Shown: positions 27,001 through 33,000 of the stretch, piece after piece
Layout of the letters: the number at the start of each line of letters is the position of its first letter
Position numbering within the stretch: position 1 is the stretch's first letter
DNA from: a virus
Taxonomy: Duplodnaviria > Heunggongvirae > Uroviricota > Caudoviricetes
Direction: 5' to 3' (one strand)
Length of the DNA: 42,529 nucleotides
Virus record (IMG/VR): IMGVR_UViG_2718218227_000014
Position numbers: made by a program

Positions 27001-30000
27001 GCCCTCAGCAACCGGCGGTGGTAACCCCATAAATTCAGTCAGAATATCGGTCAACCGGTATAGCTTGAGTTTGTCATGTCCACCAGCGGGACGAATGTTT
27101 TTCAGTCTTGCCACGACAGTCTGGCGGTGCAGACCAGATAAAGCCGCCAGTTGATTAATATTCAGCACCAGGTTTTTCAACTCATGATCCATATTTCCTC
27201 CGGAGAGCTTTAAACATGCATCGTGCGAACAACTTTAAGAAAACGCGTTCGATGTCGAACAAAAAACACTCAATTCGACATACAAAAAACAAATAACCAT
27301 TAATAATCAATAAGATGCAAAGATGATGGTGGCCGATAAAAATGCAAAAACTAGCCTTTTTCCGCGACGCTCCCGCCCCGTGGCAGGCCACCCCACCGGG
27401 AGGAGCCGTCAGCCTGAAAGCCATGACGAACGTCTGATACAGCCCTTGCATGAATGGCATCGGGATAATCCAGAAAGGAATAGCATCGACCCACAAGAAT
27501 CTGTGTGAGTGTCCTGTTTCTTCCACCCCCGCACAGGACTGGCGAGCATGAGGGACAAACCCGCGAATCATTAGCGCGGTAAAAACCCGGTGTGCATCGT
27601 TTTTGATTATTCCCGCACACTCGCGCAGAAGGAGTTCCCCGTCGGGCTACGGTCATGGTTAATGCGGGAATACAGCGACGATACAGCGCATGATGTGTCA
27701 GGCTTGAATACCTTTATCCGTTAAAAGGGATATCAGTTAAGTTATCCCGTGTAGGGTATAAGCCATTATCAAAGCCACTCTGTAGGGAGTGGCTTTTGTA
27801 ATGGCAATAAAAAAGCCCCGCGAATGCGAGGCTAAATCCAGGTATTTTTAATGACTGGCTCTTATCTCAACGCAGCCCCTTACCGCGCGCCAGATGCTCA
27901 ATATCAAGCATCAGCAATGAGATGTTTAACCATGATTCACTCCAGAAGTGAGCACCACCCTGTCTACAGAGCCAGATGTGAAGGATGATGAGTAAAATTA
28001 TCGCTATCATCGAAGGCATTGCGTCCTGATGTATTCCTGAAGCGTTCTCAGTGCTGTTTGGTCGCGGATAATTCCGTCCCGGATACCGAGAACGTTTCGT
28101 CCAGCAACTGGAGAGAGTTCGACGGTGGCATCATTGCCCATGCCGGAGGCGCTGGAGGTTTCGTCTGAGGATGGCACAGGGCATTTTCCTTTGACGAACA
28201 CCCGACCACCATTATCAAGCTTGCGCCGAAGAGCATCATTTTTAGCTTTCGCATCAGCTAACTCCTTCGTGTATTTAGCATCGAGTGCATCAGCAGCACG
28301 CTGGCGCTGCTGCATGTCAGTAATGGTGGCGGTCGCCTGCTTCAGCTCACTGACTTTTTTATCACGCTGTTCTTTATAGGCGATGGCGTTATCACGGTAA
28401 TGATTAACCGCCCATGACTGGCAGACGATGATGCAGATAACCAGAGCGGAGATAATCGCGGTTACTCTGCTCATTGTTGCCCCCACAAACAGACTTCACG
28501 CTCAATCTCGCGGCGAGTCATCAGCCCTTTCCATTGCTTACCGCCAGCGTATGTCCAGCGCCGTAGCTGATCACATGCGCCTTTGATATCACCCTGGTTT
28601 ATTTTGCGAAGAAGCGTCGATGTTCTGAAATTACCAGCGCCCACGTTGTAAACGAACGAGTAAAGAGCGCCGCGCGTTGTTTCCGGTATATCGACTTTGA
28701 TGTACGGGTTAATTTGTCTGGCGACCGTGGCAAGGTCTTTATTCAGGAGGGCTTTGCATTCTGCTTCGGTATACGTTTTACCGGGAATGATGTCTTTTCC
28801 GGTGTGTCCGTGACATACAGTCCATACGCCAACGATATCTTCGTATGGTATGTAGCTGACACCTTCCAGGCCATCGTCACCACTCGGACCAGTGATGAGC
28901 ACAGACGCTATGGCAGCAGCCCCACCACCAATAGCAGCAGCAACAGCCTTGCGTAATGATGGCGACATTATTCACCTCTCGCAGCCTTACGCTTATCTTC
29001 TTTAATCTTGAAATAAAGGTTTGTCAGATACGTCAGCAAGCCAAACACCAAGCTACCCAATACGCCTATTGCCACCCACTGGGATGGGGAGACTTTGTCC
29101 AGCAACTGCAGTAGCCAGTATCCCGTCCCCACCGCTGACGTGGTGTATGACACACCTGTTGTTATTTTTTCCATCTGGTACATACCCCGTCTCCCGTTAT
29201 CCGGAAGCTGACAACAATAAAAAGCCACCAGTTAATTCCTGATGGCCCTGATGCATAAACGTCATAATACCTGACTGTTATGATTGACAATAATGATAAT
29301 GTTTATATAGAAAGGTTCCCGATGTGTGTTACATATCATTTCTCCACGGGGAATATCCCCACGCCAGCGCAGACTCTTTTACCCGTTCTCTTCTGCGCTG
29401 GCTCTTTTTTATTATGCTGCTGCATTTACCTCTGGCACCATGCTTTCTATCTCAACACAATACGTGGTACTTCTTGTAACCAATATCATAACGATTAATC
29501 GACATAGAATTTCTCCCGTGTACAGGAACAGAGTTAAAAAGCCGGAACCGGAATCAAATCACAGGATGACCATCTGCCAGTGGCAGGTCATAAAAAAAAG
29601 GCCGCGCCATGCGCAGCCAGAACTCACAAGGAAAATGATAGAAGGAAATAACATTAGTGATGTACGCATGGCGCCTCCCGCTAAGTTCTGCAATGATCAA
29701 ACAGAACTCGCTACGTGCCCTTAAAACTCGATCATTTAGCCCCTCCAAGGAGGATTCACCATGCGGTTGATTTTTTAATAAACAGTAAACAAAAAAGTCA
29801 AGAATTATTCATTCTGTTCTTTCATCATCGGCCACAGCAATACCACAATGCCGCAGACCAGAGCGCCATCAGTCAGTACCAACATTATCCTGCTGGTGAA
29901 ATCCATCATCACCATCACTAAAAGCAGGATCACAACAGCAAGCAGACACAGTTTATAAAACAATGTTCAGGAAACGCATTCAGCATGCCTAAGGTTCTAT

Positions 30001-33000
30001 TCCTACGAATAGCCAACTTGCAACTTAAAATATTATTTATGCAGCCAATTAAATTCTGGTCCTTACAATATCAACCTGAAGATTCTTATCTTGTGCTGAT
30101 TGATAAATGACAAACCTTTTACTACCTGCATTGAAAGAAGTAGACAAAACCAGACAATTATCATAACGAGCAAGAACATAATACCAACCATCATTATAAT
30201 TAATCATTTCATATTCTTTCTTAAACTGTGGTTTGTAATATCCTGTCAGAAATGAAAAAAGCCAGAAATATGCCACAAAAGCAATCATCACAATCTCAAA
30301 AAAATGTTTTTTTATAAATGGCTTATCATAGAAGCATGATACCGATAAAAATCGCCCATAAGATCTTATCGAAATTGTAACCGCCAGCGCAATCGCTGCT
30401 GACAGTAGCAAAAGAGGTACCTGAATCTTCTGTCTCAATATAGAAAACTCAATAATTGCCGGCACAAACAATAATTCCACAGCAAAATAAAGGCGAAATA
30501 CATTTAGCTCTTGCATAGAATGTTTTCTTTTCACTGCGAAAAAGAATACAACACCAATACCCCAACCGATAAGAAATATAGCAATGACGATAACTGCAAA
30601 AAATAAACTTCTGGCAACATCATCAACACCTGCACCTACAATCCACCATGGGAAGCCGTAGTAAAAAGAAGTACCCCATCCATAGAAATAAGCACTCCCC
30701 CATCCAAGGCATCCCATGTAGGCAATAAAAAGTGAAGAACTCCTGAGCAGCGCACCATCCTTCATAACCACCCCAATACAAGATGATAACATTGGCTTAC
30801 AACTCATAACAAAAGCAATTCAATGCCGTCAAGAGGTTACAGGCTAAAAAAACTCTATTACATAGCAGCCAGCATGTTTACCGTACAAGTACAACTCAGG
30901 GCATAAAAAAACCCACTCGGCAGCGGGTTTATACATTTTTTACAACATACCAAATTTGCATGAAGTATATGGCTTTTAATCCAGTTTTGCAATATTTTGC
31001 TGTAAAAATGCTGCCTTTTGTTTTGAACGTGTTCTCGTCACAAGCAATAAAGCATCACTATCAAGCTGTAGAAAAATGTGCTTCATTGCAACCCAGCGTT
31101 CAGTAAATGTCTCGGACCAGTTTTTTGTTGTCACTCCCACCAATGATGCCAGTGTCTGGTATTCATAGGCCTCACGCCCTGCAAGTTCGCTCTTCACATC
31201 CTGTGCAGCCAGCCAGATTAACGTCTTCAGGCGATCCTGAACCGCCCCGGGTTTCCTGGAGAGTGTTTTATCTGTGAACTCAGGCTGCCAGATCATCGTT
31301 TCCGATGGAAGCATAATAAGCTTTTTCTGCTTCTGCCGGAGGAGTATGGCCCAGCCTTCCCAGCAATCGTCGATTGTTATACCAGTCCACCCACGTTAGT
31401 GTGGCCAGTTCCACTTCTGCACGGTTTTTCCAGCTCTTACGGTGTATTACCTCCGCTTTGTAAAGACCATTGATGCTCTCAGCCATCGCGTTGTCATACG
31501 AGTCGCCTGTACTCCCTGTTGATGCCAGTAATCCGGCTTCTTTTAGTCGCTCCGTATAGGCCAGTGACACATACTGAGAGCCTTTATCGCTGTGATGGAT
31601 GGTGCCAGACGGACGACGGGCCCACAACGCCTGCTCCAGCGCATCCAGCACGAATGTCGTTTCCATAGACGATGAGACCCGCCACCCCACGATGTATCCG
31701 GCAAACACATCAATGATAAACGCCACATAGACGAAGCCCTGCCATGTGCTGACGTAAGTAAAATCAGCCACCCACAGCTGGTCAGGTCGTTCTGCCACGA
31801 ACTGACGGTTTACGCGGTCGCCTGCGGCAACGGCTTTCCGGCTGATGGTCGTACGGACCTTTTTACCCCGGAGAACACCGGCAAGTCCCATAACCGCCAT
31901 GAGACGTGCCACTGTACATCTGGCCACCCTGATTCCTTCCCGTAACAACTGACGCCAGACTTTACGCACACCGTACACCTGATGATTTTCATCGTATACG
32001 CGCTGTATCTCTCTCTTCAGCCAGTCGTCGTGCTGCGCACGGGCACTGCGTTTATCCGGATGATGTCGCTGTTGCTGACAATGGTAATACGTTGACGGGG
32101 CAATATGCAGTTCGCTGCATACCGGTCCGACCCCGTACTGCTCACGCAGCTTATCCAGCAGTGGCATCATTTTTTCCAGAGGCGGTCGAACTCCGCCTTC
32201 GCAAAATAAGCGGAAGCCTGGCGAAGGATATCGTTACTGCGGCGCAGTTCACGATTTTCACGTTCCAGCTCTTTCAGACGCTGACGTTCAGCGCTGGTGA
32301 GCCCACCATCACCGCCCCCGGTATCCCGCTCATGCTGGCGAACCCAGACACGCAGAGTCTCCGGCGTACAGCCAATCTTTGGGGCAATGGAACAAATTGC
32401 CGCCCACTGTGAGTCATATTCATCCTGACTTTCCAGAACCATACGAATCGCCCGCTGACGGACTTCGGGGGAAAAACGAGTATTTTTAGTCATCCTGTTT
32501 ACCTCTTTCTCAGGGAGTTTAGTCTCCAGGATTTCCGGGGCGGTTCAATCCAGTGTCTTACCTGCAATTTTTCTGTTACTTAACAAATCTTTAAACTCGC
32601 TCCATGCCCATTGCGTTATGGTGACCTGATGCCCCCATCGAACGCTTTCGCTGTAACACCAAAGCAACCATGCTTTCTGATGTTCATCGAGAGACAAAAC
32701 CGCGCGGCGCCATGAAGAGGTTGAGAATTCAACCGGGCTGACCAAAGCAATGGATGAACCTTTTGCGTACGACTGCTTACCGGAAGTCGGCGTATTATCC
32801 AGCGTAATCATCTTGCCAGTTACCACATCCAGAATGCGCGGCTTCTTTCGTTTGTATGTACCAGTATCAAATTGTGCATGCTCCTGCCAGGCTTCGAGCT
32901 GGCCTTTCGTTGCTCCGTTCAAGTCAGCAGTAGCTGCCATAAGTTGCTCACGAACATACTGTAAATATTGGGTATTCATGCAGTAAATCCTTTCTATATT

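Follow-up and report, generated by a model that had tools for sequence, protein, structure and literature searches.

A TfpB-family membrane-protein gene between Q and the lysis genes of a defective lambdoid prophage

The viral record IMGVR_UViG_2718218227_000014 is a stretch of 42,529 nucleotides, referred to here as a whole as the window, and carries on its minus strand a compact AT-rich cassette between the antiterminator gene Q and the holin gene. A gene of the TfpB family (PF27470, PHROG 1521) comes first in the cassette, followed by a gene resembling DUF3927/tciB and then by a small RNA (sRNA) of the pasD type with an intrinsic terminator. The open reading frame (ORF) of the first gene is a genuine gene under selection, and the cassette occupies the slot of stx and other morons, between the tR' terminator of Q and the esterase and holin genes. 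The reading that we favour, to which a probability of roughly 0.45 is assigned, is that the gene is a moron that is expressed independently of Q and that its product works from the periplasmic side of the inner membrane on some process of the envelope that matters for host colonisation, possibly in connection with the lipid A deacylase LpxR. The part of this reading that is specific to LpxR is considered much less probable than the reading as a whole.

The ORF comprises 252 codons at 30049..30807 on the minus strand, and its product is hydrophobic and polytopic with an aromatic-rich N-terminus (F, W and Y account for 26.8% of the first 56 residues, compared with 21% overall), just as a sequence-only reading of the window had described it. 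In 2000 shuffles of the region 29229-30930, an ATG-initiated ORF of at least 238 codons never occurred (maximum 213, mean 68). The ratio of nonsynonymous to synonymous substitution rates (dN/dS) is 0.05-0.20 against orthologs that are 94-98% identical in protein sequence, and among 103 homologs the length is conserved and frameshifts are absent. Because full-length homologs comprise 236-238 residues and their first residue aligns with Met15, the start is most likely Met15 (30765), rather than the Met6 given in the database records of phage 434 and Sakai (247 residues); the position of the ORF proposed earlier thus stands, whereas its length of 252 residues is replaced by 238. A Shine-Dalgarno-like GGGG(T)GG run lies directly 5' of the Met15 ATG. 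The GC content of the ORF is 36.3%, with 30.5% at third codon positions, compared with 50.9% in the lysis genes and 50.1% in the window, and the earlier description of the gene as AT-rich is upheld by these values.

The protein matches phrog_1521 with an E value of 2.1e-154 over profile positions 1-222 of 222, and the PF27470 label "TfpB" is precomputed on all 103 homologs, which were retrieved by a search of 5.8 billion proteins, and on the identical cluster P0001 (98% coverage). PF27470 is newer than the Pfam-A set that was scanned, and the assignment to it rests on these precomputed labels; in the older Pfam-A set no real match was obtained for the ORF protein or for 37 family members. The protein had previously been said to belong to no recognisable family, and this statement is contradicted by the strong homology to a known one, albeit a family that consists of catalogue entries without an assigned function. 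The NCBIfam scan of the ORF protein returned nothing, no PADLOC defence model matched it at E values up to 1, and a profile search of PDB sequences gave no match at E values up to 10. The family is small, with 75 representatives at 50% clustering of 1.84 billion proteins, and is distributed over the Enterobacteriaceae, Pasteurellaceae and Neisseriaceae, where every member is annotated as hypothetical.

The amino-acid sequence is 100% identical to that of gene 68 of phage 434 (CPT_434_68, "putative membrane protein", OL657226.1) and of Sakai ECs0816, both of which also have the same neighbours, and 98% identical to that of a protein of phage 2B8. The gene is present in three of 50,697 phage records, and a narrow-alignment profile scan of genome contigs returned six loci only. 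A 3-kb contig that is binned in a Veillonella metagenome-assembled genome (L011) is 100% identical to the E. coli prophage segment and is most likely mis-binned. Between them, Pfam, PHROGs, the public annotations of Sakai Sp3 and phage 434, and a preprint of 2026 on the Pas sRNAs already contain the gene, the small gene next to it and the sRNA.

Profile searches and structure prediction had both been suggested as checks; the former led to the phrog_1521 family, and the latter gave an AlphaFold model without a significant structural match. The model was computed from a 37-sequence alignment, with a predicted local distance difference test score (pLDDT) of 81 and a predicted template modelling score (pTM) of 0.74, and replaced an earlier poor run with 17 close homologs (pLDDT 57). 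Membrane helices are modelled at residues 10-36, 47-79, 84-111, 116-137 and 155-181, followed by a C-terminal beta domain of roughly 55 residues with five strands (184-235). This architecture is shared by the family, whose members of approximately 235-250 residues combine an aromatic helix 1 (AY-x-Y-G-W-G) with four more membrane helices and a C-terminal beta domain containing YY-V/I-L. The invariant residues, namely AYxYGWG...GFPWW...DDxARS from helix 1 to helix 2, Gly175 and Tyr177 at the end of helix 5, and Tyr195 and Tyr196 in the beta domain, all lie on one face of the membrane according to the alignments and the model. Loops that are predicted to be cytoplasmic contain approximately 10 lysine and arginine residues, whereas the short loops on the opposite side contain 2-3, and this distribution of charge favours a cytoplasmic N-terminus and a periplasmic beta domain; if the N-terminus is indeed cytoplasmic, the conserved face would be periplasmic.

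The window is the defective Sp3-type lambdoid prophage of Escherichia coli O157:H7. The 2-kb region around the ORF is 100% identical to many O157:H7 chromosomes, and the whole window aligns at 99.96-100% identity with the Sakai prophage Sp3, which is located at the lambda attachment site in the ybhC/ybhB interval and in which the integrase, bet and portal genes are pseudogenes. The gene order on the minus strand is nin genes, lpxR (in the opposite orientation), ylcG, Q, the ORF, holin, signal-anchor-release endolysin, spanins and terminase, and the Sakai equivalents of lpxR, Q and the ORF are ECs0814, ECs0815 and ECs0816 ("membrane protein"), respectively. In phage 434 the order is lpxR, ylcG, a Q82-like Q, a terminator, gene 68, TciB, a small ORF, the SASA (nanS-p) esterase and holin, and in a Shiga toxin 1 (Stx1) phage the stx1 genes lie directly upstream of the same esterase (bioRxiv 10.64898/2026.05.13.724894). 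Because of these two arrangements the cassette is assigned to the stx/moron slot, in agreement with what had been proposed; the placement of the gene between a tR'-like terminator and the holin is likewise supported, by a hairpin with a T-run that coincides with the terminator annotated in phage 434 and by a holin of the S21 type. Phage 434 retains a full-length esterase and an intact Q, whereas in the window the esterase is deleted and an insertion sequence (IS) lies in Q.

Two properties by which morons are recognised are found in the cassette: it is inserted between genes that are adjacent in related phages, and its base composition deviates from that of its surroundings, as given above for the ORF. 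Like the morons of lambdoid phages (stx in the Stx phages, bor and lom in lambda), the cassette is an extra block, in this case bordered by a promoter-like site and a terminator-like hairpin, and read-through under the control of Q is possible. It is unrelated to them in sequence, and its product is a predicted inner-membrane protein, whereas theirs are toxins or proteins of the outer membrane; expression in the lysogen is in this case predicted only.

The gene is located downstream of pR'/tR' on the same strand as the lysis genes, and the cassette is flanked by terminator-like hairpins, the tR'-like one at 30930-30909 on the Q side and that at 29618-29600 on the lysis side. In phage 434, read-through promoted by Q would transcribe the cassette, the esterase and the lysis genes. 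Q-dependent expression upon prophage induction had been predicted for the window as well, but it is not expected to occur there in cis because Q is split at codon 144 by an IS629/IS1203 copy of 1310 bp. Among 5426 complete E. coli genomes, only those of two O157 strains, 644-PT8 and 180-PT54, contain the junction of this IS with Q, and Q is intact in Sakai, in phage 434 and in approximately 560 other genomes. Relative to Sakai Sp3, two further IS-sized insertions of approximately 1.3 kb each are located at 14177-15485 and 4944-6251 of the window, where they interrupt the tape-measure gene (ECs0837) and the tail-fibre gene (ECs0844). This copy of the prophage is therefore thoroughly inactivated.

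A candidate promoter of the membrane-protein gene itself lies a short distance upstream of the Met15 ATG (Table 1), in a region where promoter-like sites are no more frequent than in shuffles. In the copy of the gene on plasmids of enterotoxigenic E. coli (ETEC), similarity to the window starts approximately 70 bp upstream of the ATG and includes the candidate promoter, which is partly conserved; remnants of Q or tR' were not found upstream of that copy.

Most of the loci in which relatives occur are not in phages, and their comparison suggests that the protein is a single-gene unit. In Yersinia, the homolog directly follows a Q of another family (PF06530), and in another E. coli lambdoid prophage the order is Q (of the other family), a methyltransferase gene, tfpB, a convergent lpxR, in one case pmrD, and then the SASA esterase and holin. 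On chromosomes of the Citrobacter rodentium type, lpxR and the TfpB gene are divergent and are followed by adhC and trg, and the same adhC-trg neighbourhood in Salmonella contains sseJ, the TfpB gene and steB; there the gene has a single, stable chromosomal location throughout the subspecies. ETEC plasmids that encode the heat-labile toxin (LT) and the heat-stable toxin b (STb) carry a 59%-identical homolog (loci L021-L025) that is divergent from eltAB, approximately 870 bp from eltA and near STb, and this arrangement is very abundant (1285 index blocks). In Shigella, a 57%-identical intact homolog is present on 106 plasmids (loci L031 and L032) and is located between spa40 and virA in pWR501. 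Additionally, homologs are found on plasmid-like contigs with Rep3/ParD, whereas in Haemophilus ducreyi, other Pasteurellaceae and Neisseriaceae the homolog stands alone among core genes. The gene of one distant relative adjoins a pair of AAA_23/AAA_21 ATPase genes within a variable island that borders icd, and a remote metagenomic relative (profile E value 4e-5) is in an operon with an N_methyl (prepilin-type) protein.

The linkage of TfpB with LpxR is found in three gene orders (loci L033-L036), in which the TfpB proteins are 66-68% and the LpxR proteins 70-75% identical in amino-acid sequence and both genes are 72-74% identical in DNA sequence. This matching divergence points to a long co-inheritance of the two genes. 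In one of these loci (L034) a PmrD-like gene lies beside the pair, so that the cargo region collects genes for lipid A remodelling.

The only family member with experimental data is STM1630 (SL1344_1560) of Salmonella Typhimurium, a protein of 238 residues that is 46% identical over its full length and carries the PF27470 label. The primer published for its deletion encodes NSSMLLAYLGGLGWG, which is identical to P0075, and STM1630 is therefore equated with this family member. STM1630 is bound by H-NS, is expressed in medium that induces Salmonella pathogenicity island 2 (SPI-2) and inside macrophages, and is silenced in ST313 by two single-nucleotide polymorphisms in its -10 element; in strain 4/74 its deletion leads to more intramacrophage replication (Canals et al., PMC6785131, S1 Text). 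According to the account that Canals et al. give of earlier work (PMC6785131, citing Morgan et al. 2004), signature-tagged mutants are attenuated in calves and chickens. Additionally, the deletion was 1.7-fold hypermotile in a screen (PMC4219756). The promoter oligonucleotide of STM1630 maps 176-245 nt upstream of the ATG. Since STM1630 is transcribed from its own mapped promoter and homologs exist outside phages, expression of the gene need not depend on Q. STM1630 resembles the gene in the window in that both are located in AT-rich, horizontally acquired DNA, in its case beside virulence genes; it differs in being chromosomal, between the SPI-2 effector genes sseJ and steB and outside a prophage, and in having neither the DUF3927 gene nor pasD downstream.

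The stretch of 820 bp between the gene and the holin (29229..30048), which had been described as AT-rich and as lacking a convincing ORF or tRNA, was resolved by comparison with phage 434, to which it is 98-99% identical, and with Rfam (Table 1). The region contains no tRNA, as stated, and is only mildly AT-rich (approximately 43% GC), but it does contain a protein-coding gene, namely that of the DUF3927 protein. The name TciB originates from tciABC of phage P1 and is for the DUF3927 gene an annotation only; the annotation of this gene reads "inhibition of cell division or colicin resistance", and the literature on TciA/TciB, on DUF3927 and on phage 434 and LpxR yielded nothing useful except the origin of the name. 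An obligatory pairing of TfpB with DUF3927 was considered and rejected, as the two genes occur together in no setting other than the near-identical phage module. The lower boundary of 29229 also requires correction: an 86-codon ORF with a GTG start (28968-29228, minus strand) over-extends the holin, whose annotated start is 29183, and the boundary drawn at 29228/29229 was therefore approximately 45 nt too far upstream.

Downstream of the DUF3927 gene, the sRNA candidate ends in a strong intrinsic terminator (stem 29618-29600 followed by T8) and is 99% identical to a segment of phage NC_049952 directly upstream of the esterase. PasD has been described as a prophage sRNA that is related to STnc100, that lies at most 10 kb from Q and lpxR in >98% of cases, and whose gene in NC_049952 immediately precedes that of the sialate esterase (Zhu, Shabalina and Storz, bioRxiv 10.64898/2026.05.13.724894). 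The position and identity of 29589-29794 fit this description, and the element is regarded as a candidate with a score below the gathering threshold. The esterase itself has been lost by a deletion of approximately 1.75 kb with its junction at 29480/29481 (the phage 434 esterase has 616 residues). An Esr41-like element on the plus strand consists of a seed-like CAUUUCUCCA, a GGGG/CCCC hairpin and a long terminator hairpin with a T-run, and matches of the Esr41 type are frequent near pasD (bioRxiv 10.64898/2026.05.13.724894).

Two ORFs in the same stretch were rejected as genes. A 62-residue ORF after TciB, annotated as "putative membrane protein" in phage 434 (29559-29748 on the minus strand of the window, 5018-5206 in locus L002), has a frame that is not conserved because of a 1-bp indel between phage 434 and the window, and the terminator hairpin lies inside it; a G/A difference from phage 434 within this hairpin keeps the stem paired by wobble. 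A plus-strand ORF of 132 residues (29326-29724, ECs0817, WP_012578864.1) runs across the scar of the esterase deletion, lies opposite the sRNA candidate in antisense orientation and has no family match, and its annotation is probably spurious.

Table 1. Features of the cassette and its surroundings in the window (aa, amino acids; nt, nucleotides; coordinates refer to the whole window)
Feature	Position	Strand	Evidence and remarks
Holin, class II (S21-type), 71 aa	28968..29183	-	Pfam Phage_holin_2_1, E 2e-32; RefSeq coordinates; downstream boundary of the cargo slot
Esr41-like hairpin/terminator element, weak candidate sRNA	29323..29412	+	Rfam Esr41, 32.3 bits (gathering 102), E 4e-4, full model length
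Remnant of nanS-p (SASA-family sialate esterase)	29396..29505	-	25 nt from the 5' end of the gene (29505-29481), fused to ~85 nt from its 3' end (29480-29396); blastn against phage 434 and phage 434 annotation
PasD/STnc100-type prophage sRNA, candidate	29589..29794	-	Rfam STnc100, full length, 37.7 bits (gathering 47), E 1e-6
Gene of DUF3927 ("TciB-like") small membrane protein, 52 aa, TTG start	29805..29963	-	Pfam DUF3927, E 3.4e-14; phrog_1470, E 2.5e-17; annotated in RefSeq and phage 434
Gene of TfpB-family predicted inner-membrane protein, 238 aa	30049..30765	-	PF27470/phrog_1521; Sakai ECs0816, phage 434 CPT_434_68; the 252-codon ORF reaches 30807
Candidate own promoter of the membrane-protein gene, TTGTTA-N18-TG-n-TATCAT	30783..30812	-	18 nt upstream of the Met15 ATG; consensus match
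tR'-like intrinsic terminator, 9-bp stem AAACCCGCT/AGTGGGTTT with T-run	30899..30930	-	Corresponds to the terminator annotated at 42034-42059 in phage 434, via 99% alignment
pR'-like late promoter, candidate, TTGCAA-N17-TATACT	30964..30992	-	Consensus scan; overlaps the final codons of Q, where the late promoter of a lambdoid phage would be expected
Q82-like antiterminator Q, 3' part	30976..31237	-	Pfam Phage_antiter_Q, profile positions 137-216; aligns with the uninterrupted Q genes of Sakai and phage 434
IS629/IS1203 (IS3 family) copy, 1310 bp	31238..32547	-	orfA/orfB ORFs and breakpoints; 4-bp overlap of the flanks; annotated as IS1203 family
Q, 5' part, codons 1-144	32548..32979	-	Pfam Phage_antiter_Q, profile positions 1-139
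lpxR, lipid A 3'-O-deacylase	33454..34413	+	Pfam LpxR, E 7e-40; Sakai ECs0814; divergent moron on the other side of Q

In the reading that we favour, the gene would be a moron of lysogenic conversion rather than one with a function in the lytic cycle. As a self-sufficient single-gene unit it would be silenced by H-NS and, as is the case for STM1630, would have a promoter of its own that is used in the host or under virulence conditions. Additional read-through from pR' would take place in phage 434 and other intact relatives once Q is made, a route that is broken in the window by the IS. On the periplasmic side of the inner membrane, the protein would remodel or gate some process of the envelope with effects on motility and on colonisation of the host, and it may act jointly with LpxR as its co-inherited partner.

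Several observations weigh against this reading. The topology was derived by hand from hydropathy and charge rather than by a dedicated predictor, and three lysines directly after helix 5 argue slightly for the opposite orientation. The candidate promoter agrees with the consensus at 9 of 12 positions, and that of STM1630, approximately 200 nt upstream, is not homologous to it and cannot be aligned with it. The effects in the motility screen may have been polar according to a follow-up paper. The linkage with LpxR does not extend to the distant homologs or to those of Salmonella, Shigella and ETEC, and it could be the common descent of one islet rather than a matter of function; similarly, the neighbourhoods of virulence loci may result from AT-rich, horizontally acquired DNA accumulating together. 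Additionally, a literature search returned no paper that mentions ECs0815-0817 and no experiment on the window protein itself.

An alternative that we consider unlikely, while still giving it some weight, is that the protein, expressed from the prophage, serves superinfection exclusion or another anti-phage function by blocking DNA entry or aborting infection at the inner membrane. A stand-alone gene in the classic moron slot of two different Q modules, with homologs on plasmids and islands and a distant relative beside the AAA_23/AAA_21 ATPase pair in a variable island, would suit such a role, and a conserved surface that faces the periplasm would be well placed to interfere with an incoming injection apparatus. 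SieA of P22, Imm of T4 and gp15 of HK97 are likewise polytopic inner-membrane proteins of small to medium size that are encoded by single accessory phage genes, but they have no detectable sequence or structural similarity to the protein, and the analogy is a functional one only. However, the stable site in Salmonella and the intact copies on more than 100 Shigella invasion plasmids (pINV) are unlike the patchy turnover typical of defence genes, and the homolog of Salmonella shows induction inside macrophages as well as phenotypes in infection. The failure of the PADLOC models to match and the rarity of the gene in sequenced free phages, given above as 3 of 50,697 records, also argue against an exclusion function.

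The Pfam family name suggests another role, in which the protein would be an accessory of type IV pilin-like systems that tunes the assembly of pilins or pseudopilins by binding their hydrophobic N-terminal helices within the inner membrane. Helix 1 has the high content of Gly, Ser, Ala and aromatic residues that helix-helix packing would call for, the remote metagenomic relative shares an operon with an N_methyl protein, and the ETEC copy lies beside the genes of LT, a toxin whose export depends on a type II system made up of pseudopilins. The name itself presumably goes back to tfpB, which we take to be an ORF inside the pilin inversion region of Moraxella bovis, but a literature search gave no confirmation of this link; the TfpB that was found in the literature, from Acinetobacter, is a different protein, an unrelated PilB-type ATPase. 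Furthermore, no pilin or secretion gene is found near the gene in the window, in phage 434 or in the loci of Salmonella, Shigella, Yersinia, the Pasteurellaceae and the Neisseriaceae, and we regard a role in pilin assembly as improbable.

It is more improbable still that the gene has a late function in the phage, expressed only through antitermination by Q, in which its product would tune holin triggering or lysis timing, or would serve virion release in another way. Its position downstream of pR'/tR' on the same strand and in the same transcription unit as S, R and Rz, the predicted membrane location of the product and the annotation of the DUF3927 neighbour are in line with such a function. 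However, most family members lie outside phages without lysis genes nearby, and in the window the intrinsic terminator at 29618-29600 separates the cassette from the lysis genes. The cassette is also absent from most lambdoid phages, as the three phage records illustrate, and although Q and tail genes of this prophage have been destroyed, conservation of the gene is 100%. Finally, although the prophage is defective (as the Sakai pseudogenes show), this copy has received three IS insertions and the adjacent esterase is deleted, it is scarcely credible that the gene is a decaying remnant with no present function in this strain, considering that the ORF is undamaged and does not differ in amino-acid sequence (100% identity) from that of phage 434, which is viable, that dN/dS among orthologs is well below 1, and that the family is conserved from Enterobacteriaceae to Neisseriaceae.

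Taken beyond the window, a moron acting on the envelope leads to a wider proposal, which we hold to be unlikely: the TfpB/STM1630 family may be an unrecognised inner-membrane factor with an undescribed fold that belongs to the virulence cargo of several mucosal pathogens. The settings are the stx slot in lambdoid prophages of the enterohaemorrhagic (EHEC) and enteropathogenic E. coli type, the LT genes of ETEC, the spa40/virA region of Shigella pINV, sseJ/steB in Salmonella, and lpxR in C. rodentium. Such a factor would be co-regulated by H-NS and would act on the envelope, possibly on lipid A or lipopolysaccharide together with LpxR (and PmrD), where it would restrain motility and intracellular growth and promote gut colonisation.

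As a feature of sequence the cassette is ordinary, and its interest lies in a well-conserved family of membrane proteins without structural relatives, whose genes in EHEC, ETEC, Shigella, Salmonella and Citrobacter keep company with those for toxins, effectors and lipid A modification, and whose only studied member, STM1630, has phenotypes in colonisation, macrophage replication and motility. Phage 434, a viable and genetically tractable carrier of an identical copy, offers a simple system in which the function of the gene could be tested.

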